Source: Schmidtea polychroa (Eukaryota). Taken from it: DNA of 64,000 nt. The notes beneath the pieces are model-generated. The model was given only the letters and a program-made list of their open reading frames with translations. It did no database searches and was not told the origin of the DNA. Below, in pieces: positions 3,649 through 43,973 of the stretch. The translations under genes and the position numbers were made by a program. Within the stretch, counting starts at the first letter, position 1. Each line of letters begins with the position of its first letter. The stretch lies in the NCBI GenBank assembly GCA_044892525.1, contig CM097886.1, positions 31,186,001 to 31,250,000 of the forward strand, in the 5' to 3' direction.

Positions 3649-4113
3649 TTATCGTGTGCTGGTCGGTTCTCTTGGCGTAGCCTCTGATTCAGTAGCATGG
3701 AGAGCTAATTGGGCCTGGCTGGCCTGCCTTATCCTCGCTCGTGCCGCTTTTCCCGGCCGAATCTTCTTCCTTGGGGTTACTATTGTGGGGGCAGGTTCTT
3801 TTGGTCGATGGAGCAACTCATCTAAAGGCCGGATCTTGGCAATGACCTCTCGCTCCAGCTCCTGTTGATGCTCCTTGGCTTCCAGTTCCCTCACCCTTAA
3901 GCGGAGGGCCCGCAACTCAATCTGGTCTTGAGCATTCTGAAGTTGTAGTTGGGTGATCAACTTCATCCTCTTCTTCATCTCCGCTGGTGGGAACCAGGTG
4001 CACTCGAAGTTCCGACAGTGGGCCTTGACTCGGGTCAACTTGGTCCGGTATTCGTCTACCTGTAGTTGTGCCTGTTCCCTATCAGCTCGCATCTCTTCCA
4101 AGAGTTTCTGCAC
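3649..4113 (-). CDS. LTR-encoded coiled-coil protein (ORF-B family), probably a spliced 3' exon
   Basis: DREQAQ...CRNFECTWFPPAEM...QLQLQNAQDQIELRALRL aligns with the 6743-7237 product; TTTGTTCAG acceptor at the ORF start. Confidence 0.7.
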   Translation of the reverse strand: MQKLLEEMRADREQAQLQVDEYRTKLTRVKAHCRNFECTWFPPAEMKKRMKLITQLQLQNAQDQIELRALRLRVRELEAKEHQQELEREVIAKIRPLDELLHRPKEPAPTIVTPRKKIRPGKAARARIRQASQAQLALHATESEATPREPTSTR

Positions 4114-6742: not shown

Positions 6743-7237
6743 CTACGTTTTATTTACATCCATCGGTCCTGCACATGAACTGTCAAGTAGCGCGGACTTT
6801 CTCGCTTCCTCTTCGAATTTTTGTTCGGCGAGCCGTAACCGTTTGAGTCGCTCACGCCCATCTCGGCCCAACCGTTTTCGCTTGGCCTTGGGTTTAGGTG
6901 GGTGCATTTCGGCCAGTTCTATCGTCATGGGCCGGATCGCCGCCGTGACGTGCTCATCAATGTCCCGTTGGTTCAATTTTGTTTCCATGGCCCGCAACTG
7001 AAGCTTTAGGGCCCGTATCTCGGTTTTGTCCTGAGTACTCTGGAGCTGCAGTTGTTCGATCTGCTTCAGGTACTTATGGGCCAACTCCGGGCGGATCCAA
7101 CTCTGTTCCATCTGCCGACAACGTTCCTTGAATTGGCTGACACTAAGTTGCAGCCGCTCTGCTTGCTGCTGCGCCTGCTCCCTGTCTTTCCGGAGTCCCT
7201 CGAACAGTTTGAACACTGAAGTAAAATATACAATCAA
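6743..7237 (-). CDS. LTR-encoded coiled-coil protein (ORF-B family)
   Basis: Homologous to 3649-4113 and more weakly to 12624-13412 (W-x-x-P motif after the coiled coil; basic C-terminus). Confidence 0.7.
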   Translation of the reverse strand: MIVYFTSVFKLFEGLRKDREQAQQQAERLQLSVSQFKERCRQMEQSWIRPELAHKYLKQIEQLQLQSTQDKTEIRALKLQLRAMETKLNQRDIDEHVTAAIRPMTIELAEMHPPKPKAKRKRLGRDGRERLKRLRLAEQKFEEEARKSALLDSSCAGPMDVNKT

Positions 7238-9990: not shown

Positions 9991-12216
9991 AATATATGCA
10001 GTAACGCATTTATTAATGGTTAATGAGTCTCACGAGCAAGGCATGTAGGATGATTGTACCGATTAGTGAACATCATAATTAAAAAGTATATACCTAATAA
10101 TATACTTAGTAGCAATCGGGGAAGGTCTATAAGTTTTATAAATAGGTTATATAATTTCAATATATCCATTAGTTGAGGTAGATAAGCAGTATATTTAATA
10201 CTAAATTTTGGACATCGATGTAGGATCGTAATTTAAAAAAAAAATTCATATGTTTATTAACTTATAATTTCCTAAAAAGACCGATTAGGGTAAGTTTATA
10301 GTTGATCCATACAATTGTAAGGTTTTTTATTATATAGTGCATAAGTGTATAATTTATATAATGTATATATATAATTGTAGGGTTTATTTGTTATATAATT
10401 CATAAGTATATAACTGGTAATTTATACAAGCCATAATTCATATATAATCTACAATTTAGTATTTACAATTTAAAATTTATATTTAATTTATATCTCATGT
10501 GATTTATAAGTTTACATCCAATTATAGGTTTATACTCTATTATCAGCTTTTAGAAAGTGCAATCTTATGAAAAATTAATCCAGCATAATTTTATAGTTTA
10601 TATCAAATTATAGAGTAAGATTTATACTTTTATACATAGATTGGTAGTCGGGAATACTAGTTAAAAAAAAGTTTTTTAATTTCCTAATCAATACTCTTAT
10701 AATCGGTGGTAATTCATAAATTTAACTTGAAAGAGGTTTAGCCAACTACATATTTGGTGTATTGTAGTTAATTTAAGTCCGGAGCTCTACTCCATTTTTC
10801 ATCCTTAGGGTAGTGTATCACTGTGGAATTTTAATGTATAGATTATATGTACATTATGCGTGTGAAAAGTCAATTTACAGCAAATATTGCCTGCTTTCGG
10901 GGCCTCACTGTGCTCCCTACGACAAGCCCTTATTGTGAATGTAAGCGGTAATATACTACCGTGTATTATAATATCGATAACGAGTTCCGCGAACTCCATC
11001 GCCCGGAGGTGATTCATCGACGAACCCAGCGGCGTATACCACTGAGTCGGTACGACCTCCGACGACCCCACCATTATAATATTGAGGTGCATGCCAGGCA
11101 GTGGCCTGCTTACGTCAAGGCTGCGTGCACAATGACGTTGTAAATATTGATGCCCATTTGGTATGTGAGACGGACCAAAATCGATGATAAATTCGATCGA
11201 TGTTGGCCCCTCTAAAAAAATTTAAAAGGGGGTTCATTAATTAGAATCCTTTGGAGATTAATGCATAATAAATATTTAATATATATACCAAATACATGAT
11301 AAAAATAAACAACTGCATCAAATAAAAGAACAATTCTTACTTAAATATTTCTGATGAAGTTAAAATAATAACAAGAAAAAAATTTTTTTTGGCATAAAGA
11401 TTAACTTGTGACTAAAATGCGTCGGTATATATACCTATTTTGTACACGTGTATGTATTGATGCATTAAAACAAACTCGACTTCCTTTTATTCCAGAATTT
11501 TCTATTTTACGATTTTGCTATTTTTAATGGCAATTTTTGTGCCATAATTTTTGTTTTTATTTTTATCTTTTTATTTTTTACTTATTTTTCATTAATTTTA
11601 CGTCCATGATGGATTTGGAACGGTTCCAGAACATTCTATTTTACTTTTAATTTAATTTTTATTTTAACTGATATTTTTATGAATTTCTTTTTGAGATTTT
11701 TGGTTTTAATACTAATTTATTTATTTTCCTTAACTTTTGTTGTTCTAGATGACTTTTGTGTTGGCCATCGTCATTTTTATAGAATGTTCTGGGTTTTTCT
11801 GGAATGTTTTACTGTTTTTATCGTCTTTTAAGTTATTCGAGTTTGCTTTTTGTAACTTTGTTTTTATTTGGTTATTTTTGAGTTAGATTTTGCATAACTT
11901 CTTGCTCTTGTATAATTTTATTTACTTTCGGTGTTTATATTTTTCTGTTGTTTTCTCTTTTAATCAATATTGTTTATTTGGTGTATTTTTGATATTTAAT
12001 TATACTTTTTGCTTTTTCCATGTTATGTACCTACGCATTCTAGTCACAATTATAGTTGGGATCTAGAAGTCAGTTCTAGCCCAACATATTGTTGGGGTTA
12101 CACCTCGGCTGACCATTCTACCATGTTGGCGGGTCTAAGGGTTGATTGTCCATCTCGAATAAAAGGTGCCACCGATTTGTCAACCTGGAGTGAAACCCCA
12201 CATAACTTTCTTCCAA

Positions 12217-12364
12217 CATAGTGCCCGTGAATCACTTCACGTTGGTACTGCACTATGCAGGCGAGACGCCAGCAAGCAGGTGAGCTTCTGCCTTAAAACT
12301 ACTCCTTGCTGAGGCCTCGACTTCCCATTCACGACTGCCGATAGAAGGGCTTACGTCCATTTCC
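12217..12364 (-). ncRNA. Conserved three-domain structured RNA element near the LTR end (copies at 3409-3550, 6507-6647 and 38179-38326)
   Basis: Stems covary among three divergent LTRs while the loops UUCUAAC/UUCUAUC, RCUCAC and AGUACCAA are conserved; G-U pairs favour the minus strand. Confidence 0.7.
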
Positions 12365-12623
12365 TTACACAACCACCTATCAGGATTCGCTGAATGCAAA
12401 TTGGGAAATTCTCACTAGATCTTGCGGGTTCTCTACTCAACCCACTTAATTAAAGTCTAATTATTCATGAACGAAAACGTGTAAGACAACAAAATTTATT
12501 AATTTCAACGTTATGACACAAGGATTCAGCTGTACACTTTACTAATGTTGGTCGAAAGAAGAGAAAACATCATAATCAACATAGATCGGATCCTTGTTCC
12601 TCATCCTGACCGCCACTGGGGTT

Positions 12624-13412
12624 TTATTGTTTCTCCCATTCAGTGTCGGCGAATAATTCATCGAGGTTGAAAAACTCGGAAGCGTTCTCTTCCCACCTTA
12701 CGCCAGCGGCTGATATGATTCGCGCTGAGGGTCCCGTTGTTAGGTCGATGGACACGTGAGAGTTGCCACCGTTGGTTGAGTCCTCTATTGATGGGATGTT
12801 TGGCTTTGTAGTGGCGCGCTCGCGCTGTCTCTTCTTGCGCTCTGCACGAGAGAGTTGTTTGCGCTTGGGTTTGCTTGAAGAGGCCACTTGCAGAAGGGTG
12901 ACTGAGACGGATGGACTAGCAGTGGGGGGCTTACTGGTACCCGTGATGACAACATCTGGTCGCTTGGGGGACAATTCGGTTTCGACGCAGTCTCGGCACG
13001 GTCTCTTGAACGGTGGAGAGGGATTCGAGGAAAGGTTGTGATGAGGCGGAAAGATGTCATCGGCCTCTCGGATGGGAACCTGCACTATTTTTCGGGTTGT
13101 AGCCGCCTGCACGTAAACCTTATGCAGTGCCTCGGATTGTTCTCTGATTAGACTTCTTTGGGCACGGCTCTCAGATATTAGCGCGTCCCGGCAATGCTCG
13201 CTACGATCGAGCTTCTTTTGGATCTCTTTCATCCGAGCGGGACTAAACCATGTCCCTTCCAGCTCGTCTATCTTCCTCTTGTAACGTCCAATCTGAGTTT
13301 GTAGGTCCTTTATCACCGTATTTTTATCCGCGCACGAGAAGCACGGCCGTAATGCTGATTTAGTGGTTGGTAGCATGCTTGCTATAAATAATACTAATGA
13401 AATGTAGAACAT
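12624..13412 (-). CDS. LTR-encoded 262-aa protein (ORF-B family: coiled coil, S/P-rich, basic NLS-like stretch)
   Basis: IDELEGTWFSPARMKE matches CRNFECTWFPPAEMKK; identical copy at 38586-39374. Confidence 0.7.
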   Translation of the reverse strand: MFYISLVLFIASMLPTTKSALRPCFSCADKNTVIKDLQTQIGRYKRKIDELEGTWFSPARMKEIQKKLDRSEHCRDALISESRAQRSLIREQSEALHKVYVQAATTRKIVQVPIREADDIFPPHHNLSSNPSPPFKRPCRDCVETELSPKRPDVVITGTSKPPTASPSVSVTLLQVASSSKPKRKQLSRAERKKRQRERATTKPNIPSIEDSTNGGNSHVSIDLTTGPSARIISAAGVRWEENASEFFNLDELFADTEWEKQ

Positions 13413-16182
13413 ACGATTTTAGAATAAATTAGATACGACCTACGGCCATTCGTGGATGCTTGACCGACAAAAAAAAAAAGAAAACTTATTCTACAATCCG
13501 GTTTTACCACGGATCTTATTTGTTGAAACAGTTTTATTTAATCAAATGCCATCGGTTTGACGCATGCTATTAACTTTGACTCTCTATTGATCTAACTGTA
13601 TACATGAGGGGCGTAACAATTAATAGGGTGTAAATATAATATTGGTGAAATAATATAATAACGCTTTAGTGGAGGGACATTATAGTATGCGACTAAACCT
13701 TACTATAAATTAGCTATTTTAATTTATTAAAAACAAATTACTATCGCTATTCTCAACATATTTTTGATTCGAAATTTGTTATTGGAAGTGTACTTTTAAT
13801 TCGGTAGTGAATGTGATTATCCATGTTGTCTACCATTTGTCTGAAAATATGTGATGAGTTTACATCAGCCATTACTTGAACACCCTAATGGGATATCTCA
13901 TTGGTCATAGCACATGTCCAAATTTACGGATACTACTGTCGACTAGTTGATTACATTATCGAACTATTGTGAATGTCACGTGTCGCGACTATCATGTATG
14001 CTAGTCTGATATTCTGTGCTCTCACCACATGGATTCGTGTATGGCTACTATCTTATCTCATTTACTTGGTGTATGCCATTTTCACAGTGATTTTATCGAT
14101 CCTGCTGTCATATGATTTTCTCTGCACGGTGATTTATTTGAATTATGATTTATGCTACCGTCAGTTCTCATCGCGGAATTTTACCCTTATCAACTTGTGT
14201 GAATGATCACCATCGTTTGGAAATTTATTGGATCTTTTCAGTGATCGTCGAGGGAATAATTCTACCAAATGCTGAAGCATATTACTACTCGCGTCATTCT
14301 ACTCGGATTTTCCTATTCAGATGTAATGCCGTCTCGATGAAAACTGTCCTTAGCCATTCGAAAATTTCTCTCAGGTTCAATAATTTGGATATATACCGTG
14401 ATGACCTGGCTCTTATTGTAGAAATAAATGTTATTAATTAAATTTGGTGATATTTTACCTGTTTATAATTTTTGAAATAACTAAGTCTATAAGAACTTTC
14501 TGATTATAATATTAGAGAGGTTTTCGTAGAATCTCGCATTTTATAGTTTCGAGTTAGTTAAAGTTTTTAGAATACTTTCGTAACCTGACATGCAATCAGG
14601 ACAGGCTAGACGTCATCGGGTCTATGATAACGGAATTTCATACGAAATCAGTTCTACTGAGGCCGGCAAATAGACGTTGTCGCAATTAATTTGATGAAAC
14701 CATGTTTCCAGATGAAGCGTACTATGAGATGTTGTTATTTTTGACGAAGTTCACTAAATCGTGGTCTGGATCTCTTTTTTCAATAGGGGTAAGATTTACG
14801 AAAACGACTTGACGAAAGAAAAAGGAATGCGACGCCCTCAGTCACTGTGCAAATCCTTGAAAATCCCTTCATTCGTACGACTATCTTTGTGAAATCATTG
14901 TCTACCGGTTATTTTTTATCCATACCCCATTATGATAATTTAGTCGCATCTTCAGCGATAGGACCCGTGAAGAAGCCTTCACATTTCGGCCCAATCTAGC
15001 TGCGTGATTGAAATACTCCATGTCCACCGGCTGAGCTCCCGAAGGCACCTCATACCATGACATGGAGTATCTCAACTCCACGTTACTCGTTAAATGAAAA
15101 TTCATAAAATCTTTAATTCAAATAAAATACGGACATCTGGATAAAAATATTTTATTAATTCTGAAATACTTAAATAATACAAATTCCATCAATACGTTAA
15201 AGTTATTAAAATGGAGAATCAAATGAAGAGAGTTAACCAAAATGTTTAATCGTTAATATTTACCATTACTATTAGCTTTACAAATACTTAAATAAATCTA
15301 TAAACAAATGAAATACCCCTTACTATTGTTTAGGCTGAGTCAAAATTCAATGTTGTTCGTTCCAAATAGTTTGAATGGTGGTCCGTTGGATGTCGATTAT
15401 TGTGATGGATGGTATTTCGGTCTCTGAACTGGTTTTGAATAGTCGTGGAGTTTTCTGAATGACGGTTGCTTGGCTAGTAGTGTCGATCCTATGAAATGCT
15501 CGGGGTTAACAGTCAAAACAGTAAACATTTTTCTTACCTATGAAATGCTCGGGGTTAACAGTAAATTTAATGTTTTTGGTAGTTGTATATATATCAAATT
15601 CTTATTTGTGCGGACCAATCAGAGTTGAGTACCGCTTATTTCTATTAATTTAATATAATTTTCTTGTTTTTAGGTTGTTTTTTCCTTATTTTCTTTATTT
15701 TTAATATGTTTTTCTATTTATTTCCTTAATTTCCTTATTATTTCTTGAATTCCTCTTTATTTATTTGTCAACTTGTTCTATTTTAATCTTTTCTTAATTT
15801 TATTTTTTGTTTTAATTCTTATGTCTTAATTATTATTTTCCTTATATCTTATTCTATTTTATTTCTGATTTTATTTATTTTATTTTTATTTTTCGTAATG
15901 TTCTACTTCCCTACTTTCTTATTTTTCAACGATTAAATTTTCGACTCAGCCCAACAAATCACTCGGGGACCCATCAAAATTGCGTCCCGCAATTGCATAA
16001 TTAACTTAATTCATTCATTCAAAAAAAAATATAACACGAACACGGAAAATTATACAACAATGATAAAAATTTTATTGTAAGATCAAGGTCAAAGCAAGAC
16101 CAAGCAAGTATCACTTAAGGTGATAGTTTGTACATACAATAAAAGTTTCCACATATAATAACACAAATGTTTGAATTAGAGT

Positions 16183-16851
16183 TTATGAACTGTTAACCAT
16201 TGGTGCTTCTGCTGGCGGCTGTTGGTTGGTTTGGGTATTGATGTTGAGATAGGTCTGACTATTAGATTTCGGCTGGATTGGTTGATTACTCGGGGTTCGA
16301 GGTCGGAATGGGGTTGGGTTAAGATTTGTCAGGGGCACTTCTTGAGGATTTTGGTTCGAGGTTGTTCTTATTGATGTCGAGATTCTACATCTATTTCGAA
16401 CTTCGTAAATTTTCATGAATATTGGTAGACATAGGAGGAGGGTCTCTGCGATCACCACATATATGAGATAATGGGTGTCATTGATCTCGGGAGGTGTTTT
16501 TGGCTTTTCTACAAGATTTTCAAAATCCTCTTGTTGCATTTGTTGTTCCAACTGGTCGATCTGTTGGCTTTGTTCGAAGATTTGTTTGTTTATCATTTTA
16601 CAATTGGGGTTCTTTTTACACATTGTTTGGATGTTGTTGATGTGGGATCGGGTTGATTGAATGGTTTGGATGATATGGGTTTTCACGGTCATAGGGTATG
16701 TGCATTTGCCGGATTCTTGTTTAGGTTCTTGATTTTGATTGCGGTAATCTCGTACGATTTTCGGTTGGGCGTTTAATTGTTTGTTCTCCATCAGAATCAT
16801 CAATACCATCATTGTTATCATCATCTCGCCTCGCATGATACTATTATACAT
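16183..16851 (-). CDS. Accessory type I membrane protein (signal peptide, Cys-containing ectodomain, TM, P/Q/N-rich tail)
   Basis: MMITMMVLMILM signal; YLIYVVIAETLLLCLPIFM TM; tail contains TYLNI. Confidence 0.7.
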   Translation of the reverse strand: MYNSIMRGEMMITMMVLMILMENKQLNAQPKIVRDYRNQNQEPKQESGKCTYPMTVKTHIIQTIQSTRSHINNIQTMCKKNPNCKMINKQIFEQSQQIDQLEQQMQQEDFENLVEKPKTPPEINDTHYLIYVVIAETLLLCLPIFMKIYEVRNRCRISTSIRTTSNQNPQEVPLTNLNPTPFRPRTPSNQPIQPKSNSQTYLNINTQTNQQPPAEAPMVNSS

Positions 16852-16891
16852 TCATTATGTTTATTTACAATTGGTTTTAATGACCCTTAAT

Positions 16892-17644
16892 TTAATGGTT
16901 CTGATTTGGATTATTTTCACCGATTCTCATCAAGGTGGACTCTGCTTTAATTACCCTGTGTCTTAACTCGGGCAGCATTTCCAATTGTCGGTCTTTTTCA
17001 CGGGCTTCTCTCTTTAGATGTCTAATTTCTTTTTCCAAGCGTCTAATTTCTTCCCTTTTCTTTTCAAGGTTTCTTTTTAGCTCGATTTGTAGGAGATCTT
17101 GTTCGTTTTCTTGCAGGTAATTTTGTTGTTGATGTTTTCTTTCTATTTCTCTATATTTGCGGACCCACTTCCTCATTTCTTTACTTTCCCGTTGGTTTTC
17201 TTCTAGTTGTCGTTTTAATTTATTTATAGCTGTTTGGCGCTCCTTCGCCTCAGTTTTCCAGTAGTCTTGGATTACCTCCTTTGCTTTGAAGCTTGCCCTC
17301 TCTTTCCATAGCTCTTCCGCTATCTTTTCCCAGTTTTTCCCTCGCTTCCTTTGTTCGTGTAGCCATTCATTTTCCTCTTCCGTTTCTCTTTTTATTTCCC
17401 CCAACGCTTCGCACTCTTTCTTTAACACCTTTATCATTTTCCGGTCCTCCAGGTATTTGTTTATTAATCTCCCGTTTTCGTATTTCTCTTCCCGTAACTC
17501 GGCCTTTAGCGTTTGGGTTTCTGTTGTTTCTGCCTCAATCTCTCCCTCTTCTACGTCGCTCATAATTTCTATCGTTTCCTCGATTTTCATATCTATAATA
17601 TGTACAGTTAATGGTGCGCTATAGTGCGACTTATACGTATACAT
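16892..17644 (-). CDS. Accessory coiled-coil protein (probable start MKIEET)
   Basis: Long E/K/R-rich intact ORF with an AG acceptor just before the internal ATG. Confidence 0.7.
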   Translation of the reverse strand: MYTYKSHYSAPLTVHIIDMKIEETIEIMSDVEEGEIEAETTETQTLKAELREEKYENGRLINKYLEDRKMIKVLKKECEALGEIKRETEEENEWLHEQRKRGKNWEKIAEELWKERASFKAKEVIQDYWKTEAKERQTAINKLKRQLEENQRESKEMRKWVRKYREIERKHQQQNYLQENEQDLLQIELKRNLEKKREEIRRLEKEIRHLKREAREKDRQLEMLPELRHRVIKAESTLMRIGENNPNQNH

Positions 17645-17758
17645 TGATATAAAATTTAATAGTTTGGGTTACAGTCCCTTGAATACTTTTACAATACTTT
17701 AATTTTTTTGTTTGGGATATACGTCCCGGTTTTTAGTTTTTCATCTTTTCATCCACCC

Positions 17759-18814
17759 TCATACGAAGGTTTCCTCCTGGCCTACATAACCTTCATCACT
17801 ATCGACCGCGGAATGTAACTGTATCGCAATAGGGTCGTATGGTAGGTAATATTGGGGAATTTGAGCTCTCAATTCACTAACTTCGTCTCTTAGAGCTCGA
17901 GTGATATTCAATTCCTCGTCGAGCAGATAGGTGAGATACCTTGTCTCTTCATCTTTCGCCTCTATCTGTTTGTCTAGGGCCTTGACTTTCTCGTCGCCCT
18001 TCCATTTTTCAATTTCTATTTCTAAGTTTTTAATATTTTCGGTGTACATTTTCCTTTCGTTTTCTAATTTTCTGTTTTTTCCCGCTAGGACCATGTTTCT
18101 TTGTTCCAGCGATCCTTGTAATCCATTAAGGTCTCTTTTCATCTCTTCTACCTGATTTACTAATTCCACAACCCGTCCCGCTTGTTGGGTTATCATCTCT
18201 TCCATTGCGGCATTCTCGTGCTCTCTTATGTCGCACTTCATTGCCAAATGTCGCTCAAACTCCATAGCCTTTGTTTGCCAGGTTTGGCTTCGGGCGGCGA
18301 CCTTTCTCAACCTTTTCAATTCTTCCTTTATTATTAAATTCTCCTCCCATTTACCTTGTTCGCTTTCATATCCGAGTCTCATGGGCAATTCTTTCATCTC
18401 TTTTTTCATTTCTCTGTTTTGTCTTTTCCATTTTCTCGCTTCTGCCACTAAGTGCATCATTTTCCTGTCTTCTATTTGTTTTTCCGCTTCGCGCTTGGTG
18501 TTCTCATCGGTAAGTCTTTTTCTCGCTTCCTGCACTAGCTGCTTTAAGTAGTGGCTGTGTGCTTCTTGGCGGGTATTTTCTAGTGACGCCCATTTTGATG
18601 CTCTTTTGCATGCTTCTGCTTCCGCTCTTAAGTTGTGTATTAACCATTGGTATTGACTATTCTCATCTTCTCTAGTTTCTTCGATGTGATTTCGGGTGAG
18701 ATTAGTTAGTTGGAACATTACTTTGTTCCATTTTTTATTATGTTCTCGGGGAATTTGTGTCTTGTTGACATTGGTTGGGGCTATCGCAGTTTCGGTTATT
18801 TTCTCTTGTGTCAT
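17759..18814 (-). CDS. Accessory coiled-coil protein, 351 aa
   Basis: Long intact heptad-rich ORF with the same codon bias as the polyprotein. Confidence 0.75.
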   Translation of the reverse strand: MTQEKITETAIAPTNVNKTQIPREHNKKWNKVMFQLTNLTRNHIEETREDENSQYQWLIHNLRAEAEACKRASKWASLENTRQEAHSHYLKQLVQEARKRLTDENTKREAEKQIEDRKMMHLVAEARKWKRQNREMKKEMKELPMRLGYESEQGKWEENLIIKEELKRLRKVAARSQTWQTKAMEFERHLAMKCDIREHENAAMEEMITQQAGRVVELVNQVEEMKRDLNGLQGSLEQRNMVLAGKNRKLENERKMYTENIKNLEIEIEKWKGDEKVKALDKQIEAKDEETRYLTYLLDEELNITRALRDEVSELRAQIPQYYLPYDPIAIQLHSAVDSDEGYVGQEETFV

Positions 18815-19007
18815 CTCTAAATCATAGACATCGATTAATCTTTTTATTATGAAAAAGGAATTTATTCATTATTTACTGTTTCTTGGGAAATTTTCGCATC
18901 ATTTTTGGGTTTTCGTATTTAGGGTTTTCATTCTATTATTATATAATATTTTATTGGTTATATACACCGATATATACAGATTATTATATACAACATTATT
19001 CGATTGG

Positions 19008-20396
19008 TTACTCCGTTCTACCCTTCTCCTCTTTCCTCACGGTCATCTTGATATATATGGTATCATTTCTCGCCATATCTTCTACTCTTTGTTGTGAGAT
19101 GAACGTAGGTGCTCCTGTTGCTGATCCTTCTTCGTTGAGGGGCCTCTGGTAAGCTATTTGATTCCCCGTTGTTTTGAAGCTTTGCTCATGTATACTTTGG
19201 TTGTTCATCAGAGTAATATCGATTTTTGCCTGGAACGGCCATTCTAATATTTCGTCGTATTCTCCTTTACATAACAGAAAGAAAATCGAAAAGTGCGTAT
19301 CCAATCCGGTTCCGTCCCCGTTGGGATATACCTTCATTTTCATTTTGTACCCATTTTTCCAAGAATGGAATGTAGGACTTGTTATTCTTGTCTCTTCTCC
19401 GGTTTTTGCTTTTCGTATTCTTTCTTTTACTCCCGTTATTTTCCATATGTAGGGTGCTGTTGGGGTTATCTCATTTAGATTTATTTCCCGTATTTTCTGA
19501 TGTAGCTCCTTGGCCTGATTATTACTGATTTCTGTTCGGTTTATTTGCATCTTTATGTTTGCTCGGGCTTCTTCGAACGCTTCCCTTTCTTCTAGTAGTT
19601 CTTTGACTAACACTTTCAACGATGTTATCTCTATCTCCATTTGTTTTACTTTCTCTTCGCTTTCTTGTAGCGCAGTCGACCACATTTCTGCGTGAGTTGA
19701 AGCATTTTCTACTAAATGATGTGGTAACTCACCTCGGTGTAGTAGTTTCTGACAACCCCATCTACCTAGTACACATGTCATTCTTTTCTTTGCGCATTCC
19801 CTTAGATGCTGTGCCACCTTCATTATTTCCCCTTGGTTACATCCGTTTGGGCATTCCCCACTGAACTCTGCACATACTCTCTCCTCTTGGACATTGTGAT
19901 GTTTGAGGGTGAGATTTATCCACGTATCTATTTCTCCACAGTGTTCACATCTTTCCAATCTCTCTTCACACTGCCTTTGATGCTCTTTTTCTTCGCTTGC
20001 TCGAATGGTTTTATGGCACCTTTCACACTGGCCAATTCTGTACATACATTCTCCCATATGTTGTACTACCTTCCATATTACTCCTTTCCATTCGCATGGG
20101 GCATTTTTGCATCCCAGGTTGGTGTTTAACATGTCTTTCACTGCGGCTTTATCCTCGTTAGTGTCTTCTAAACTCGATATTAGTGTCTCTTTACACACCG
20201 GGCACCTCTGTGGTCTATTCTTTATTGCTTCACTGATACATTCTTTACATACTCTGCATCCACATTGCGTTTGGTGAGGTTCCTTTAACAGCTTTTCACA
20301 TATTCCGCACGTAACATGTTTGTGTATTCTGATCGTTGTAGATTTTCGGACTTGCTCGACAATCTCTCTGAACTCTTCTCTTTGTCGTTTATCCAT
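19008..20396 (-). CDS. TRAF-family protein (RING, TRAF zinc fingers, coiled coil, MATH/TRAF-C), intronless, inside the retroelement
   Basis: CGICEKLLKEPHQTQCGCRVCKECI..CPVC RING; YIWKITGV..SPTF..GYKMKMKVYPNGDGTGLDTHFSIFFLLCKGEYDEILEWPF MATH. Confidence 0.93.
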   Translation of the reverse strand: MDKRQREEFREIVEQVRKSTTIRIHKHVTCGICEKLLKEPHQTQCGCRVCKECISEAIKNRPQRCPVCKETLISSLEDTNEDKAAVKDMLNTNLGCKNAPCEWKGVIWKVVQHMGECMYRIGQCERCHKTIRASEEKEHQRQCEERLERCEHCGEIDTWINLTLKHHNVQEERVCAEFSGECPNGCNQGEIMKVAQHLRECAKKRMTCVLGRWGCQKLLHRGELPHHLVENASTHAEMWSTALQESEEKVKQMEIEITSLKVLVKELLEEREAFEEARANIKMQINRTEISNNQAKELHQKIREINLNEITPTAPYIWKITGVKERIRKAKTGEETRITSPTFHSWKNGYKMKMKVYPNGDGTGLDTHFSIFFLLCKGEYDEILEWPFQAKIDITLMNNQSIHEQSFKTTGNQIAYQRPLNEEGSATGAPTFISQQRVEDMARNDTIYIKMTVRKEEKGRTE

Positions 20397-20481
20397 TCTA
20401 TAATTATATGTACAAATAGTTCTTATCGATACAGGTTCGATATTTTATTTACAATTATTTACATTTTAAGCTAGGTTTGGT

Positions 20482-20865
20482 TTAGGGTTCGGAAGAGTCG
20501 GCTTCGTGTCCGCTCTCCTCTCTATTCATTAGCCATTCCGACCAGTCTTCTATTTCTGTCTGTTCTGCTTCCTCCATCATTCTGTCTATTTCAATTTCCT
20601 GTCGACGGCTATATTGGGTTATCCTCTCTATCTCTCTTTGCATTTGTTCGATTTTTACCCTCTGGTCTTCAATTATCTTCAAATAACTAAATCCTCTGTT
20701 CATACTCTCGATCAGGTTTCTGTGCATCGTCAGTCCTTGTTCTTGCAAATTGGACACTAATTGTGCTAATACGGCACATTGTTGCTTCCATAATTCTTCA
20801 GTTACTGTATTGTGGTTCATTTCGTTATTTCCTTGATCCATTCCTAATTTATATACACTTTTCAA
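20482..20865 (-). CDS. Accessory small coiled-coil protein (probable start MDQGNN)
   Basis: Intact ORF; AAATTAG|GA ATG acceptor context. Confidence 0.6.
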   Translation of the reverse strand: MKSVYKLGMDQGNNEMNHNTVTEELWKQQCAVLAQLVSNLQEQGLTMHRNLIESMNRGFSYLKIIEDQRVKIEQMQREIERITQYSRRQEIEIDRMMEEAEQTEIEDWSEWLMNREESGHEADSSEP

Positions 20866-21001
20866 CTCTTATGTAAATTTAATTTTATTTTATGATTCCC
20901 GTTATTGTATAATATTGATACCGCGCTTATATAGAGATATAGTACTGTTATATACATAAGATATACTTACTTTTTACAATTATATACAGTCATATTCCTT
21001 T

Positions 21002-24000
21002 CTATATACGTGAGTTTGGAGGGCGCTGAGCGTTCCAGGCCTCCACCCACTGTTCTTGTTTGATATCACTTGGTCGTTTCACTCGATGTTGGAAATTTCT
21101 GATTCGAGTCATCTCTAGTTCTCCGCGGTGTCGTTTATCCTTAATTATTTTTATTGTTCCCCCCGTTATGATTAGGAATGCCCCTGTTATTATTATCCCA
21201 CTGATCCACATCATCTGCTTCACGCTTATACTCTCTGGTTTTTCCTGGTTTGTTAATGTTGATATTGCTTCTGCACTTTTCTCGTTCCCTCTTTTGCCGT
21301 TTCCTTTCATCCTTTCCCGTATTCTTGCTATTTCCTCGTTCATACCCTCCTTTGCCATCTTTTGTATTTTTTCCATCTCTTCTTCCGAAACATAGTTGTC
21401 CTGAGCTTCCTCGCCGGTTTTCTTGTGCTTTCCTCCTTCGTCCTTTTCGTCGCGGTTTTTCCTTTTCTTTCCTCTTTTCCCCGGGTATCGTCGGCATTCT
21501 CTTTTTGATTCGTTTCTCCAGATACAAACCGTATATTCCTTCGGGGGCTGCTGCTGCGTCACATATTGATGGCATCTCTCACCCGGTCCTAATCTTGAAA
21601 TACAGACTTTGTGCTCTTTTCTTGGTTGGAGCTGCGTTATTACTACTTCGCCACCTTTTCCTAGGTGTACCTCTTTTCCTTTAACGTTCGTTATTCTTTT
21701 CCCGTCTCGATTTCGGTATGCTTCTTGTATTCTTACTTCTGTTATTGGTTCTGTGTCCTCATTTATTAGTACTAGTTTCTGATACGCTCTAGACATGCAT
21801 CTTCCTAGTATGCACCGTTCCTTTAAGTCCCATTCTTCCTTTAAATCCCACTGCTGCTCTTGTGCTTGCTTTTTCTTTTCTTGTTTTAGTTCGTCCTCTT
21901 TGCTATCTTGATTCTCCGCTTCTTTGGTTTCTTTTATCGTTCTCGTCCCTCCATGAGCTGTTACTAACTCTATCATGGTAAGCATAATTATCATTAATAT
22001 CATATTTGTCTCTATTTCTTTGTTAGTGAAAGGTAGGCATACCCTCTGTTTTCCATTATTCGATTTTTCCTCCTCTTTGGTCTTAGTTCCCGGGCTGTTT
22101 CCCTCTCTTTTCGTATCCGAATCCTTGTTTTCCGGTTTACCCCCCTCCGGTTCTCTTTTCTCTTTATCCTCCTTTCGGCCTTTTCCGTTATTGTCATCGT
22201 GTTTATCTCCCCCGCTGTCGTTTAAAATGTCGTCCTCGACATTTATATCGTTCAATAATCTGCGATATGTTGTTAGCACTCTGTTTCTTGCTAATTTTGC
22301 TTCGAATTCAAACTCCTTTCTGCCCGTTGCAGCGTGTCTCTTTCTATTCCATTCTTTGACTAATTCTCTTAATTGAATGCGACGATGTTTCCCAATTCTT
22401 TGTTGCTCGTTCTGATTTTGCGTGAATTTTAGGTCTTCTCTATTTAATACTATTAAAATAATTTTAGGCGTCCCCCCCTTAGTTAGGGTATTCTTTACCA
22501 TCGCATTTTCTCCGTTTTCGTAGAATTCGTTTACATTTATCGCATATTTATTATTTTGTGGTACTCTCCAGGTTAATAATAATTTCATTGCTTCTCGATT
22601 TTTCCGTACCGTATTCCATTGAAACTGAGATGTGTTTTTGCACATATTTTCAACTTCTTCTTTTGTCGCATTTTTGCAAATAAATCTGATCATTTCTAAG
22701 TTTGGCTGTATGGTTGCCCAGTCCAAGGTGGAATTTCCTTCATTGGACCTTTCGTCTAGTTTCGATCCTGATTGATGTAGGATGTGGAGTGTTTTTGGGT
22801 GTATTTTCGTTATAGCTGCATACATCATGGCGGTTTCACCTTGTTCATTTTTCGTGTTGGTTTCCTCGCCCATCTCCCCAAGGATTCTCATGATCGTTAT
22901 TGCTCTATTCTCTTTTGCAGCTAGTATTGCTTGTTGTAGAGGTGTTCTGGAATCCTTCGTTACCATCGTAAATGCTCGAGGCAAGAAGGTTTTGATTTTC
23001 CCGATATCTAAATCCGTGGTTTGATCTCTTGCGTATGTGTGTACGGTTTTTATTATTTTGGACAATATTATTTCGTCTGGCAGCTCTAGCATTTCCTCAA
23101 AGAACACTTCTTTTGCTTTGCGTATTATTGCCTCTTGATCTATACTCATTGATTTGGTTTCGATGACGTTGTTTGTGACCGTTTGGTTCGTTGTTGACTT
23201 TGATTCCCTGGATTTCTCATACCTTATTTTCGTTTTCTTTCCGTTTGGATTATTGATTCGTTCCTCTGCTGTAAGTATTTGGATAATATTCAGGTAATTC
23301 TCGCGGATGTTATTCATTGTGTCCATCATATATAACACACTTACCGTTTCCCAATATTTATTTCGTACTTGGTTAGTAAATTGGAATAGGGATTTTTCGA
23401 ATGTGTCGATTCGCTTTTTTGCTAACTGTTCGTCTTTATGATTTGTGAATTTTATCCCTCGTTCTAGTAATTGATTCGGGATTTCGAATAACTGATGTCC
23501 TTTCATAGCTTCTCTCATCAGCGTGTTCTCTCCTCTCGTGAACGCTTCGTTTACGTTGATCATATAATCGTTTCGAATTGGATTTCTCCATGTGATTAAT
23601 ATTCCGGTAATTGTCGTCAGTTTTTCTTTGATCGCTGTTAACAATCCATCATACATGTTTCCGACTTCCCGATTGTCCTCATATGATAGTAGTTCCATCA
23701 ATGACGTGAACGCCTCGGTACTTCTCCCTTCGATAGCATGGTGTAGAGCGTTTTTCCGCTCGTGGTCTTGTGTAGTTATTTTCGATCCGGTATCGAGTAA
23801 CGCGGTTATAATGTCTTTTGTTTTACCTCTGTTTGCGGCTATCATTAATGGTGTGTAACCTTGGTTGTTTGTTTGTTCTGTTGATCGCTTGCAGTCGTGA
23901 AATGCTTCTATTGTTTCTAGTATTTGCTCGTTGTTACCTACTTTCATGAGTTTGTGTAATGGTGTGTCTCCGTAATGATCTGTTATTGTAAATAATATTG

Positions 24001-26521
24001 GCCATTGGCTTTTGACTACTCGCAATAATGGGTGTGTCCTTTCTCTATTTGCATAGTTCTCGATCATCGTCAATAATCCTCCTAATATTTCGAAATCTAA
24101 TCGATCTTTTGCCCATCCAGGTATTTTAATTTTTACCTCCTTTACAATCTTTTCCGCTTCTGATGGTTGGATACCTAATCGTCCAGTGATCGGTTCTGCG
24201 AGTTGCTGCATCATGTTCATTCGGTAGGTTTGCGAACGTGTGGTTAATGTACGGCCTTCTGGTTGACTAGTGGCTGTTTTTGGAATTGATTTGCATCGTG
24301 CCACGTTTACGTATATTGGCCTGGTAAAGGGGTTATTTACCAATTTCACTCTTACATTAGTTTCGCCTACGAATAAGATTTCATAGGGTCCTTTTCCGTT
24401 GCGTTGTAACTTTTTTGTGGTTCCTGGAATTAATTCCGGGGTTTCTATCATTACCCAATCACCTGTTTGGAACGTATGTTGCTTCACGTTTTTCTTTCGA
24501 TCGTGTAAATCTTTATAACTTTCCTGGTAGAACTTGATATTTAATCCCGCAGTTTCCCAAATTTCTTGCATTCTTTCCTTGAATCTCGTAACATAATCGT
24601 CGATCTCCATATACTGCGATATCGGTGGTTGGTATTCCAGGTCCATTGGCATGTTGCACTCTCTTCCGTACATTAATTTAAATGGGCTCATTTTCGTTGA
24701 TTCGTGAATTGACATTCTGTACGCCATAAGACATAGGTTTATATATTCGTCCCAATCTCGTTGGTGACGATCGACGTAATTTGATAACATTTGTATAAGT
24801 GTTCCATTAAATCTTTCCGTCATCCCATTGGTTTGAGGGTGGTATGGAGATGTTCTTAGTTTTGCTATTTTGAAGTAATTTGTTACTTCGCTCATTATCT
24901 CACTCATAAAATTAGTTCCCTGATCGGTTAAGATTTGTTTTGGTGTTCCATATCGGCAACATATCTCTTCTACCAAAATTTTTGCGATTGTTTTAGCTTT
25001 TTGGTCTGGCATCGCGAATGCTTCTGGGAATTTCGTAAGAAAGTCTGTGATCACTAGAATGTAAACGTTTCCTTTATCTGACTCTGGTAGTGGACCAACT
25101 ACGTCCATGGATATCATTGTCATTGGTTCTATTGGTACTGGCATTGGCGTTAAAGGTGCTTTCCATTTCGATCCAGTATTCTTCCTGGTTGCACAAGTTA
25201 GACAATTTTTTACCCATTCGGTTACATCTTCAGTTAACGTAGGCCAAAAATATTTCTGTTTCATTCTTGCTAACGTCTTTTTCGATGACATATGTCCTCC
25301 CAATCTCCCATCGTGATATTGCGTTAGTAACTCTTTTCGTCGGTTTTCCGGTATACACATTAATCGTTTTTCCCCATCCATTATCAGCAACCAATCTTTC
25401 TCTATAATATATCGGTGTCGGTGTTTATCCATATGTTCTTTTAATTTTTGGTCTTTCGCATATACCTCTGTCTTTCCGGTTTTTACATAATCGATAATTT
25501 GTTTTAATTCCGCGTCCTCTTGTTGGTCCTTTCGCAATTGACAGAAATCCAAATCTTCCGCTACTATTAAGCATATGCGTTGCATTTCTGAATCCACCAA
25601 ATCTGGGAAAATAAATCTTGACATACAATCGGCGTTGGCATTTGCTCTTCCCGCTTTGAATTTTATAAATGGGGAGTATTCTTGCAATTGCATGGCCCAT
25701 CTCATCAGTCTACTGGACGCTTCTTTATGTTGCCCTAACCACACTAATGGTTGATGATCTGTGGTTATACATATCTCATGTCCCCATAGTAAGTATCGGA
25801 AGTGTTTGATAGCTTGTATTATAGCCAATGCTTCCCGTTCTGTTACCGAATAGTTCTTTTCGTGCTTTTTGAATGTTCGACTGTAATACCCGATTACTCT
25901 CTCTTTTCCTTCATCATCTAATTGTCCCAGAATCGCGCCTGCCGCGTACCCGCTTGCATCCGTTGCCAATAGAAATGGCTTCTTAAAATCTGGGTGTACG
26001 AGGATAGGTGCTTCGATTAGTTTATCTCTCAGCGTTTCGAACGCCTGTTGTTGTTCTTTTTCCCAAATGAACGAAATATCCTTCTTTACTAATTCCTGGA
26101 TTGGTTTTGCAATTCCTGCATAATTTTTGATAAATTTGCGATAGTATCCGCATAATCCTAGAAATTCCTGAACTTGGGTGACAGTTTTCGGTGCTGGACA
26201 TGTTTTTATTTTCTCAATGTTTCTTGGATCTGGCTCCTTTCCTTTAGCTGACACTATGTGTCCTAAAAACGTGACTTTTTCCTTTGCCCAATCGCATTTT
26301 GATGGTTTGAGTTTGAGTTTCCACTGTCTTAATCTAATAAATACGTTTCGGATATCTTCTAGATGTTGTTCAAATGTCGCTGAATAGATTAGTAAATCAT
26401 CAATATATACCATACATTGTTTGATTCCATGGGTGACAAAGTTCATACACCGTTGAAATGATGCTGGTGCGTTAGTCAGTCCAAATGGCATTTTCCTGAA
26501 TTGATATAGATCTCGTCCCAA
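21002..26521 (-). CDS. Polyprotein part 2: RT C-half, RNase H, integrase (HHCC, DDE, GPY), two ankyrin blocks, signal/TM, FN3-like ectodomain, TM, tail
   Basis: MPFGLTNAPASFQR, VYIDDLLI, LATDASG, TDHQPL, HDGRLGGH..CLTC, SMDVVGP, TDQGTNF, NGMTERFN, GPYEI; GDTPLH, GYTPLMIAA, KNALHHA, RTPLQQA, GETAMMYAA. Confidence 0.93.
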   Translation of the reverse strand: MGRDLYQFRKMPFGLTNAPASFQRCMNFVTHGIKQCMVYIDDLLIYSATFEQHLEDIRNVFIRLRQWKLKLKPSKCDWAKEKVTFLGHIVSAKGKEPDPRNIEKIKTCPAPKTVTQVQEFLGLCGYYRKFIKNYAGIAKPIQELVKKDISFIWEKEQQQAFETLRDKLIEAPILVHPDFKKPFLLATDASGYAAGAILGQLDDEGKERVIGYYSRTFKKHEKNYSVTEREALAIIQAIKHFRYLLWGHEICITTDHQPLVWLGQHKEASSRLMRWAMQLQEYSPFIKFKAGRANANADCMSRFIFPDLVDSEMQRICLIVAEDLDFCQLRKDQQEDAELKQIIDYVKTGKTEVYAKDQKLKEHMDKHRHRYIIEKDWLLIMDGEKRLMCIPENRRKELLTQYHDGRLGGHMSSKKTLARMKQKYFWPTLTEDVTEWVKNCLTCATRKNTGSKWKAPLTPMPVPIEPMTMISMDVVGPLPESDKGNVYILVITDFLTKFPEAFAMPDQKAKTIAKILVEEICCRYGTPKQILTDQGTNFMSEIMSEVTNYFKIAKLRTSPYHPQTNGMTERFNGTLIQMLSNYVDRHQRDWDEYINLCLMAYRMSIHESTKMSPFKLMYGRECNMPMDLEYQPPISQYMEIDDYVTRFKERMQEIWETAGLNIKFYQESYKDLHDRKKNVKQHTFQTGDWVMIETPELIPGTTKKLQRNGKGPYEILFVGETNVRVKLVNNPFTRPIYVNVARCKSIPKTATSQPEGRTLTTRSQTYRMNMMQQLAEPITGRLGIQPSEAEKIVKEVKIKIPGWAKDRLDFEILGGLLTMIENYANRERTHPLLRVVKSQWPILFTITDHYGDTPLHKLMKVGNNEQILETIEAFHDCKRSTEQTNNQGYTPLMIAANRGKTKDIITALLDTGSKITTQDHERKNALHHAIEGRSTEAFTSLMELLSYEDNREVGNMYDGLLTAIKEKLTTITGILITWRNPIRNDYMINVNEAFTRGENTLMREAMKGHQLFEIPNQLLERGIKFTNHKDEQLAKKRIDTFEKSLFQFTNQVRNKYWETVSVLYMMDTMNNIRENYLNIIQILTAEERINNPNGKKTKIRYEKSRESKSTTNQTVTNNVIETKSMSIDQEAIIRKAKEVFFEEMLELPDEIILSKIIKTVHTYARDQTTDLDIGKIKTFLPRAFTMVTKDSRTPLQQAILAAKENRAITIMRILGEMGEETNTKNEQGETAMMYAAITKIHPKTLHILHQSGSKLDERSNEGNSTLDWATIQPNLEMIRFICKNATKEEVENMCKNTSQFQWNTVRKNREAMKLLLTWRVPQNNKYAINVNEFYENGENAMVKNTLTKGGTPKIILIVLNREDLKFTQNQNEQQRIGKHRRIQLRELVKEWNRKRHAATGRKEFEFEAKLARNRVLTTYRRLLNDINVEDDILNDSGGDKHDDNNGKGRKEDKEKREPEGGKPENKDSDTKREGNSPGTKTKEEEKSNNGKQRVCLPFTNKEIETNMILMIIMLTMIELVTAHGGTRTIKETKEAENQDSKEDELKQEKKKQAQEQQWDLKEEWDLKERCILGRCMSRAYQKLVLINEDTEPITEVRIQEAYRNRDGKRITNVKGKEVHLGKGGEVVITQLQPRKEHKVCISRLGPGERCHQYVTQQQPPKEYTVCIWRNESKRECRRYPGKRGKKRKNRDEKDEGGKHKKTGEEAQDNYVSEEEMEKIQKMAKEGMNEEIARIRERMKGNGKRGNEKSAEAISTLTNQEKPESISVKQMMWISGIIITGAFLIITGGTIKIIKDKRHRGELEMTRIRNFQHRVKRPSDIKQEQWVEAWNAQRPPNSRI

Positions 26522-29500
26522 CGTGAAAGCTGTTTTCTCTTTGTCCTCATCTTTGACTTTAATCTGCCAGTATCCACTTTTAGATCTAAAGAAGTAAAAT
26601 ATGCTGCCCCTTGCAACATCAATAACATCTCATTGATGTCCGGCAATGGATAGGTATCTCTCTTGGTCACTGCGTTTAACTTCCGATAATCGATACAGAA
26701 TCGTTGGGTGCCATCTTTCTTTTTTACCATGACCACTGGGAATTGCCAAGGTGAGCAACTTGGTTCGATTACTTTTGCGTCTAGCATCTTTTGTACTTCT
26801 GTTTCGGCTATTTCTTTCTGCATTTCTGCTAGCTTGTATGGTCTCAATGCAATTGGGGTTTCGTCTATGAGTGGTATTGCATGTAAGGTAACATCACATG
26901 TACCCAAGTCTAAATCTGAGATGGCGAATATATCTTTATATTCTACCAACAATCGGTGCAATTTTTTCTTTTCGTCATTCGTCAACAACATACTATCTAT
27001 TGTCCATAATTCATCATCTTTGATCATCTCGTTGGTCACTTTCGGTAATTCTATGTCCATCATTGGGGTCAATCTTCCCAATTTTTCGTTCTCATAAATG
27101 ATTTTGTCTTCCTCTTCGAAATTCGTGATGTTGAGCGGTATCACTCCTTCTTGGTTTATTGTGATTATTTCTCTTGCGAGTGGTAATTCTCGTCGCTTTT
27201 CGAATGACTTGCTTGGTTCAAAGATAACTTCTCCTTCCATACCCGTATCCACTTTTATCTGACAAATCATCTGCGATTTTGCTGGTACTATTATTTTTTC
27301 TGGACATCTGATGACTGCATTCATTTTGCATATTCTACCGGTTTTGTCTTTTAAACACATGGTTGTTAAGTCAATTACGACTTCCTTTAACAATTCTGGC
27401 ATCAAATCCGTTCCGATTATGCATGGTACGCTAAGTTTTGGTATTACTGCCAAATACGTTTCAATTTCGTTGTCCTGGTATCTCAATGTAGTCCACCATC
27501 TTCCGACCACGTCCACTGTTTCTTTACTACATGCTATAATGTGAATTGTTGTTGATTCGATATCCTTCCAGTGTTTACTGGGGATTTGATTAATCGCTAT
27601 CGCTGATACATTAGCTCCGGTGTCTATCATAGCATTGGTTTCTTTACCATTGATTTGAATCATAACTGTTACTGCTGGACCTCCAGGTAAACTCATCGCT
27701 GCTATTGTTCTTACGTCATCTGCTTGATCTACACTTTTGGTACGTCGTGTTGGCATATAATGCATACCGGGTTGACTCGGTAATTGCGGATACATATTTT
27801 GTGTCATGGTCAAAGCTGTTTGTGGTCCCACGATATCCGGTGGTATATAGCTTCCATTGGCGATCCAGGTGTTTGTCTTTTCCTTTTCCCAATATGGTGC
27901 CGTTTCCATTGGTTTTTCGTTTGGGTTTCTGTTTGGATAAAGACATTTATCGTTCCCGTTATCATCGTCGTCACTATCGCTGTTAGATGATTGGCTTCTA
28001 AATCGGTCCAAGAATTTTGGCTTATTCTTTTTCAATTGTCGTCTTGTTGCTTCATCGTACATTACTTTCCGGAATCGTCTGCCTACTTCCTCGTCGGTTC
28101 CTTTAATCTTTGTTAATATTTTAATCAATCGCTTTATCCGATGAATGTCTTTTGAGTGACCATGTAATACCATGGTTTTAGCTAAAAATGGTAAGAAGCC
28201 TACTATCATTTTCCAATTTACTTTCTTTTCTCGCTTGTATATATCAAAACAAGCTAACATTTGTGTTAGTATTACTCTGACTATCTGAATTATGAGTATG
28301 ATCCCTAATATCCCGGCCATCATTTGTCCAAAAACTAAGAATCTTCCCCACATTGCTTTCATCATGTTTGACGTAGCTTGTTGAAAATGGTCTGGCGATA
28401 ATAGCAGCTCGTAATTCGGGCCTGATTGATAGTTTGTGCCCCCAGTTATTGTTACCATATTAGACAAAATGGATTCTCGTCTGGCTGGAAAGAGTACGTT
28501 AAGCCGTGCTGTTTCTAGATCTTCTGGGGAATACATACCACCGTTTGACACGTCTATAGGTTTGAAATCTAGCTCTGTGGCGAGTTCTATTAATCCAAAT
28601 TTCTTGGGTTCCTCGGATATGGTTTTTCCCGGTAACATCATCCATTTCCCATCGGGTCTTTCATACAAAGGTCCGTATGCATTAGAACAGTTAAAGAGAT
28701 TTGGGTAGAAACCCACTGGATTCATAATTCTAGTGACTGGTTGGACGAATCGATTTTGTCCTTTATAACGAATTTCTAATTCATTTGCACATCTCTTTTC
28801 GGGTAGTATGGATTTTTCTGGCATTCGTGCATACGTCTTGGTACACTGGTATGTGTACATCACTTCTCCTACCATTCTACCAAAGTGTCCATCTGGTAAT
28901 GGGAGTGATGGCATCGTGTTATCTGGGTGCGTTATCGCAATAGCTAGCTTTGTTTTCAATATTTCTTTATTCAATGAACAATCGTTTTGTATCAGATCGT
29001 AATATACTTTTTGCAAGGTCGTTTGTCCGCGATGAAATAGAAAATCCATTTTATTATTTGCATATAAGTATAGTTTTACGTCCTCCGTTGCTATCTTTCC
29101 CACTGCTCTATCGATTATTTGTCTCGACATATAGATACCTGCGTAATTGGTTTTATATACTATACTGTCACATTTGGTGGTTTCTTTCTCTTTGATAAAT
29201 CTCATACCTAGATCTGGATCGTCTGTGATTAATGCTGTTGGTGTCTTCTGCGTTGAAAGTCTCTTTTCTCTGGGAGATGGTGGCATTGGTTTTCCATTTC
29301 GCATTCTCACTCTGTCGTTTCCATCCTCGTCGTTCTCGTTCTCATATATTTCTCCTTTTACTTCATTGAACAAAGCACTTTTTAACAGTTGGAGTCGGCA
29401 TTTTTGGGTATTAGCTTCATAGATTATAGTTGATACTCCTGTCCTGCATACGTTTTCTGTAGCTCTACACGTTGGGTTGGTCTTCATTTGGTAATTATTT

Positions 29501-36164: not shown

Positions 36165-36646
36165 TTACGACTGGCTGGCACTATTCAACAGCTCAATCTT
36201 CTTCCTTCTGATCGGTTAGACTATTCAACAACTCGATCTTACGACTGGCTGGCACTATTCAACAGCTCAATCTTCTTCCTTCTGATCGGTTGGACTATTC
36301 AACAACTCGACCTTACGACTGGCTGGCACTATTCAACAGCTCAATCTTCCTCCTTCCTGATCGGTTGGACTTTTCACAACTCGACCTTACGACTGGCTGG
36401 CACTATTCAACAGCTCAATCTTCTTCCTTCTGATCGGTTGGACTATTCAACAACTCGATCTTACGACTGGCTGGCACTATTCAACAGCTCAATCTTCCTC
36501 CTTCCTGATCGGTTGGACTTTTCACAACTCGACCTTACGACTGGCTGGCACTATTCAACAGCTCAATCTTCTTCCTTCTGATCGGTTGGACTATTCAACA
36601 ACTCGATCTTACGACTGGCTGGCACTATTCAACAGCTCAATCTTCA
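36165..36646. repeat. 74-bp tandem repeat, 6.5 copies, in the leader upstream of gag
   Basis: ttacgactggctggcactattcaacagctc... starts at 36165, 36239, 36313, 36387, 36461, 36535 and 36609. Confidence 0.95.
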
Positions 36647-38026: not shown

Positions 38027-38044
38027 ATCCCGGCTGAGCCCCCA
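38027..38044 (-). promoter_or_regulatory. Primer-binding site, tRNA-Pro type
   Basis: TGGGGGCTCAGCCGGGAT versus the MLV tRNA-Pro PBS TGGGGGCTCGTCCGGGAT (16/18), 7 nt inside the 5' LTR end. Confidence 0.85.
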
Positions 38045-41918: not shown

Positions 41919-41922
41919 ATAT

Positions 41923-43855: not shown

Positions 43856-43973
43856 TCTGTTTATTCAGCTTCAAACAAAAATAATAAAAGTTTTTGTAAA
43901 TAGTGCCGCGGACCACTTGCAACCTGTTCGCGGACCCCCTGGGGGTTCATGGACCCCAGGTTAAGAACCACTG
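43856..43973 (-). mobile_element. One end of a hAT (Charlie-like) MITE inserted in the integrase of the degenerate Gypsy element
   Basis: Minus strand CAGTGGTTCTTAACCTGGGGTCC terminus at 43973; the integrase frame breaks at HQSNGLV|QWFLT. Confidence 0.75.

Follow-up and report, generated by a model that had tools for sequence, protein, structure and literature searches.

The question raised by this locus is what an intact gene of the TRAF type is doing inside a planarian retroelement: whether it is carried passively or kept for the element's use, where it came from, and what its product might do. The stretch of DNA that was analysed (the window) comprises 64,000 nucleotides of Schmidtea polychroa (assembly GCA_044892525.1, contig CM097886.1, positions 31,186,001 to 31,250,000), and positions given below without a contig or locus label are those of the window.

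The ORF lies on the minus strand at 19008-20396, is free of stops and encodes 462 aa, while the plus strand across the same interval contains many stops. A RING at residues 30-68 (E 1e-4) and a MATH domain at residues 316-453 (E 3e-27) were detected with Pfam. Pfam zf-TRAF gave no match to the 462-aa protein, and five finger-like Cys/His sets following the RING, at residues 96-235, were assigned by eye. Residues 22-155 matched RING-zinc-finger fragments of TRAF6 and TRAF5 in PDB (E 1e-14 and 8e-14, respectively), and the PDB sequence matches of the C-terminal part were the TRAF domains of TRAF2, TRAF3 and TRAF1 (E about 1e-27). A structure model built on a 16-row alignment (pLDDT 84, pTM 0.38) contained one continuous helix at residues 232-304, where the TRAF-N coiled coil is placed before MATH, and the modelled TRAF-C beta-sandwich matched the fold of TRAF3, TRAF1 and TRAF2 (E 1e-16). 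By its MATH domain, its RING with zinc fingers and its predicted coiled coil, the protein is assigned to the TRAF family and is of the TRAF2/3/5 type. An earlier reading made from the letters of the DNA (the sequence-only reading) had described a complete TRAF in a single intact ORF with Cys for His in the RING, and both descriptions held: the minus strand encodes every part, and Cys fills each of the eight RING ligand positions (C30, C33, C45, C47, C50, C53, C65 and C68), with Cys47 at the usual His position. The RING, the five fingers, the coiled coil and the MATH fold are shared with vertebrate TRAF2/3/5, from which the element's protein differs by the Cys-for-His RING and by a replaced serine triad in the binding groove.

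The same reading placed the gene in a retroelement, and 19008-20396 does fall within a Burro-like gypsy LTR element of 29,829 bp on the minus strand (12090-41918), with ATAT as the 4-bp target-site duplication on either side (12086-12089 and 41919-41922). The 5' LTR (38052-41918, 3867 bp) holds a 262-aa ORF (38586-39374) and is 100% identical to the 3' LTR (12090-15956), so that this copy is judged to be very young. A primer-binding-site-like stretch a few bases inside of the 5' LTR end (38027-38044) may resemble a tRNA-Pro site. Read along the minus strand, the element encodes a 161-aa ORF that carries an IAP-type RING at its C-terminus and gave no BIR match (37224-37709); after a tandem repeat of 6.5 x 74 bp (36165-36645), a polyprotein in two parts, the first with Gag, zinc knuckles, a Monjiviricetes-type fusion glycoprotein, protease and the start of RT, with no MATH match (26476-34854), and the second with the remaining RT, RNase H, integrase and ankyrin repeats (21002-26491); a 119-aa accessory ORF (20482-20841); the TRAF; two coiled-coil-like accessory ORFs of 351 aa (17759-18814, under purifying selection) and 250 aa (16892-17644); and a 222-aa accessory ORF in which a hydrophobic N-terminus and a likely membrane segment were noted by eye (16183-16851). 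The TRAF thus occupies a slot for an accessory gene 3' of pol.

The polyprotein frame is broken within RT in the window copy. Both RT motifs stand in one frame in 20/20 other copies, which were chosen via their TRAF, and the split is therefore private damage or an assembly error; a programmed frameshift, also considered, was rejected on the same count. The left flank (12080-12089) ends, right at the target-site duplication, in a few bases equal to the element's own LTR end, and no further LTR likeness was found in this flank. Clear homologues of the 262-aa LTR ORF are present at several other loci. Two short ORFs (3649-4092 and 6743-7111) resemble it by eye (12624-13412 was grouped with them) and may represent old solo LTRs from related families, a likeness for which tblastn and blastn gave no support.

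The element is Burro-like in its length of 29,829 bp, its 3867-bp LTRs, its ATAT target-site duplication and the Gag-env-PR-RT-RH-IN order of its polyprotein. Burro1/GYPSM1 and Burro-like elements, as described in an excerpt of PMC6431247, are likewise of gypsy type and about 30 kb long, with ankyrins, accessory ORFs and MATH/TRAF cargo, and, as in the window element, their env-like gene stands between gag and protease and in frame with them. The layout and the best protein matches also indicate a planarian host. In the excerpt, MATH_TRAF_C is assigned to the polyprotein of Burro1 and, for a Dugesia tigrina element, to an accessory ORF; that Burro elements can carry TRAF-domain cargo has therefore been published before. 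The excerpt names the MATH domain alone, in the polyprotein or in an upstream ORF, whereas the window element carries a whole RING-finger-coil-MATH gene 3' of pol, a fuller form of the cargo known from Burro elements. In the literature searched, PMC6431247 (in excerpt) alone links TRAF to a retroelement, and this ORF may already be described in Grohme 2018 or Lee 2026, or in the supplements to either.

A family of Burro1 layout is present in the same genome. A genome scan for MATH (1551 candidates, 150 scored) returned 4791-aa frames with MATH inside, which is the Burro1 layout, and one such copy carries after pol a homologue of the 119-aa ORF, a 474-aa full TRAF, a BIR-RING IAP and coiled-coil ORFs. 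This second TRAF sits in the same slot and is 29% identical to that of the window; 90/90 scored matches to it were 99-100% identical and unbroken. Other parts correspond as well: the 119-aa ORF has its homologue (32%) before the TRAF there, the 351-aa ORF has one (32%) in the same copy, and homologues of the 161-aa RING ORF stand upstream of gag in Burro1-type copies. The RT regions of the two families are 65% identical. A MATH domain inside the polyprotein, present in the Burro1-type family, was not matched in the window's element, nor was a BIR (Pfam), and the TRAF-IAP pairing was seen only in the sister family; an IAP search gave 2 matches. Lacking polyprotein MATH and BIR matches, the window element is on its sequence a sister family and not Burro1, which is known here by its published description. 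At L114:1042-3785 (G000:C1, about 21.552-21.555 Mb), the full TRAF ORF is followed directly by the BIR-RING IAP ORF, and this Burro1-type copy holds two TRAF-derived units, the full TRAF and a RING-less MATH unit in the polyprotein.

Whether the gene is a passenger can be judged from its copies. All 40 scored DNA matches to the TRAF (of 363 candidates) were full length at 99-100%, and subfamilies at 69-99% protein identity retain the same neighbours. To avoid choosing copies on the TRAF itself, a second set was formed from the 39 non-self best matches to the RT stretch (617 candidates, 40 scored); the TRAF was present in 39/39 of these and intact in 37. Ratios of replacement to silent change (dN/dS) were calculated for 10 representatives (45 pairs) drawn from 30 distinct intact ORFs, intact ORFs only, and were 0.07-0.20 in the 21 pairs with dS < 1 and 0.03-0.10 in 22 near-saturated pairs, with 2 further pairs saturated. 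Where computable, the RING, fingers and MATH gave 0.06-0.15 (the RING 0.07-0.15, in 5 pairs) and the coiled coil 0.10-0.36. The TRAF is under purifying selection in every domain and is not passive cargo; the sequence-only reading had named a single, neutrally evolving copy as the finding that would speak against it, and this is contradicted by the copies. A passive and neutral transduction of a host gene would fit the intactness of young copies, which are unbroken anyway given their identical LTRs. It is refuted by dN/dS values that stay well below 1 even as silent sites approach saturation, the TRAF slot recurs in a family with only 65% identity in the RT region, and we give passive transduction almost no credence.

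Private changes of single copies were neutral (5 silent, 21 replacement, ratio 1.09), from which it follows that selection acts on replicating lineages and not on inserted copies. RT-RNase H-integrase gave dN/dS of 0.01-0.03, some ten times below the TRAF (about 0.1), and the other accessory ORFs gave values like those of the TRAF, so that the TRAF is not singled out among them. Selection points to a benefit for the element's lineage, without naming a pathway. Silent divergence was uneven along the TRAF (coiled coil 0.09-0.19, MATH 0.8-1.0; L001 against L081 and L066), which suggests recombination between subfamilies.

The origin of the gene was approached through trees and through the TRAFs of the host. 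The element and Burro1-type TRAFs formed one clade in two full-length trees (96/94 and 97/91) and more weakly in a MATH-only tree (94/79). Element TRAFs have an odd amino-acid make-up and long branches, which calls for caution with the trees; the shared slot agrees with the clade. This single clade points to one old capture of the TRAF, present in both families. In a tree with nine non-flatworm outgroups, which used 3/7 element rows and 8/12 single-frame host rows, element and planarian-type TRAFs grouped at 95/94. The phylogeny proposed by the sequence-only reading therefore placed the gene among planarian-type TRAFs, and it did not fix donor or direction: an AU test did not reject host rows held together without the elements (p 0.32), and a named donor gene was rejected, with identity of about 30% to all host-like genes. 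Transfer would have run from host to element. The base make-up of the TRAF is that of pol (A 0.41, T 0.18), as expected of long residence in the element, whereas host-like TRAFs have T 0.27-0.34.

The best single-stretch database matches were planarian TRAF2-like proteins (Dendrocoelum lacteum TRAF-2/-4/-5 and Dugesia japonica TRAF-2-like A), at 30-32%, which have the same Cys RING and the same third-finger insertion; the Smed TRAFs of PMC7586133 are counted in this group. Planarian host-like TRAFs differ from the element's in having the base make-up of the host and a groove closer to the canonical one. No relative reached E 1e-10 among the 3810 candidates of a word-index protein search, and the 174 relatives found with HMMER at 1e-30 included no close element homologue. 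Seven host-like TRAFs have a single open frame from RING to MATH (about 440-490 aa); no element cassette adjoined them in the 10-40 kb fetched, where transposon fragments lay nearby. One of the seven is a single-copy gene with 71% identity to Dugesia japonica TRAF-2-like A. The capture of a host mRNA, as first proposed, stands in that a host-type TRAF is carried by a retroelement. Its intronless state is no proof that a spliced mRNA was captured, because these seven host-like paralogues are also intronless over the coding frame. The Cys-for-His RING likewise lost its value as a clue specific to the element, and was rejected as an element innovation: it occurs in 9/9 aligned element and host-like rows, in three Dendrocoelum TRAFs and in 17/103 database RINGs readable by pattern. 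Dense clusters of host TRAF-like genes were observed at G000:C2 (about 110-124 Mb and 3-5 Mb), with RING-finger and MATH parts in separate frames (likely one intron), and a 433-aa double-jelly-roll-like ORF (Pfam PF21738; L051:527-1825), possibly a Polinton-like capsid gene, lies near a host TRAF pair.

The relation could also be the reverse or a mutual one, with selection acting through a benefit to the worm, or with element copies having seeded the expansion of host TRAFs. Planarian TRAFs are described as expanded in an excerpt of PMC6109357, many genomic MATH matches look element-borne, and mutualism has been reported for the Burro1 IAP (as cited in an excerpt of PMC13465017). Of 27 host-like MATH domains, none fell within the element clade, for which reason element copies were rejected as the source of the sampled host TRAFs, and the neutrality of private changes means that inserted copies are not individually conserved; we regard these possibilities as very unlikely, although the host may gain some benefit as a by-product.

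What the protein binds can be approached through the groove of the TRAF domain. Eight peptide-contact residues are common to TRAF1/2/3/5 (PMC1334386, in excerpt). On an alignment to TRAF2, on which groove residue numbers were placed partly from recall, the element protein had 3/8 of these identical and 2 similar: the groove retains Tyr, Asp and Phe, has Lys355 for Arg and Thr427 for Ser467, and reads Gln-Ile-Ala at the serine triad. By this alignment the protein does not have the TRAF1/2/3/5 groove residues, which bears on binding specificity and not on family membership. Dominant-negative TRAFs usually lack a RING, and viruses usually recruit host TRAFs. The decoy suggested by the sequence-only reading, a dominant-negative protein that enters the trimers of host TRAFs or ties up their partners, so that the signal is stopped and not relayed, would draw on a groove that departs both from TRAF2 and from three host-like paralogues (5-7/8 contact residues kept), on a triad that varies by subfamily (Q-I-A, Q-L-C, L-V-C) and on the RING-less MATH unit also held by Burro1-type polyproteins. 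The RING and fingers show the same degree of conservation as MATH and the remainder of the protein, and the decoy fits less well and appears unlikely; a conserved RING together with a changed groove makes an active adaptor with other partners the likelier reading.

An alternative within the element is that the protein ubiquitinates or scaffolds the element's own Gag or Env for particle assembly or traffic, with no role in host signalling. The element does encode a fusion glycoprotein, a second RING protein and ankyrins, and the TRAF was never absent from RT-picked copies. Nothing ties the TRAF to Gag, and the full receptor-adaptor layout with the Tyr/Asp/Phe core of the groove is kept, which leaves this alternative decidedly unlikely.

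Signals for expression were sought in the spacers between the accessory genes. The spacer before the TRAF (20397-20481) contains three TGTA(A/C/T)ATA motifs, an AATAAA and a YAG one base ahead of the ATG, as candidate 3'-end and splice-acceptor signals. Across the six 3'-cassette spacers (within 15957-21001), TGTA(A/C/T)ATA occurred 10 times in 817 nt on the sense strand (mean of dinucleotide shuffles 0.46; 0/500 as high), once on the antisense strand and once in 18 kb of coding sequence; Burro1-type spacers had 7 in 680 nt, and 12 host TRAF 3' flanks had none. We take the motif to fit a Pumilio element or a UGUA 3'-end signal. A YAG within 3 nt (<=3 nt) of the ATG was present in 8/12 accessory ORFs (1.3 expected). 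For AATAAA the spacers showed no clear enrichment, the count being reached in 90 and 890 of 2000 shuffles. The spacer motifs and the YAG before the ATGs suggest that each accessory gene yields a spliced mRNA of its own, with its own 3' signals. Parts of the TRAF ORF are covered, mostly at < 95% likeness, by contigs from two putative RNA runs that belong to one study; a third run gave one short piece of it and a fourth none, no joint from LTR to TRAF start was among the joints listed for these runs, and these contigs were given no weight.

Taken together, we favour with moderate confidence the reading that this is a conserved accessory gene, likely captured once from a planarian TRAF2-like lineage, whose product is likely an active RING adaptor with a retargeted groove that tilts death or immune signalling towards survival of the carrier cell. 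After a single transfer into a giant Burro-like gypsy element, the gene would be expressed from its own mRNA, with a splice acceptor at the ATG and 3'-end signals behind the gene. Its product would form a trimer through the coiled coil and may have putative ubiquitin-ligase or ligase-recruiting activity, and the retargeted groove would engage new partners and so shift signalling in favour of the cell that carries the element. TRAF2 and cIAP are partners in mammals. The pro-survival outcome is suggested by analogy, from the IAP-type genes in both element families, from the Burro1 IAP (B-IAP), for which protection of stem cells against apoptosis has been reported (Lee 2026, cited in an excerpt of PMC13465017), and from the action of planarian TRAFs in cell survival (PMC7586133, in excerpt). 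B-IAP is likewise a captured cell-death regulator in the same kind of element; it differs in being an IAP and not a TRAF, and in having been tested by experiment, whereas the window TRAF is known from sequence.

A wider version, put forward as no more than tentative, would be that planarian giant retroelements carry a viral-style survival module of TRAF and IAP, acquired in a single event. A full TRAF with a rewired groove would work together with an IAP-type ligase, both encoded by the element and each expressed from its own spliced mRNA under Pumilio-like 3' control in stem cells, and part of the reported planarian TRAF transcript expansion would be encoded by retroelements.

To the published cargo the present analysis adds a second full TRAF, which stands beside the IAP in Burro1-type copies, evidence pointing to a single old capture, and the spacer signals. 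A whole TRAF has been retained while silent sites diverged to saturation, which suggests that the element's life cycle includes control of death or immune signalling. The finding offers a direct follow-up to the reported mutualism of the Burro1 IAP, which has a full TRAF as its neighbour. Element copies may also be included when planarian TRAF/MATH transcripts are counted.

Elsewhere in the window, two more broken gypsy elements were found at 50373-57084 and 43947-46987, one of them older, env-bearing and Burro-like (env before protease) and the other a smaller gag-pol element. Intact ORFs without a Pfam match outside the element lie at 2368-3213, which by eye looks like a DNA-transposon remnant, and at 48281-49742. 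A 15-bp tandem array at 59487-61036 reads as a 469-aa repeat ORF and is likely a minisatellite.
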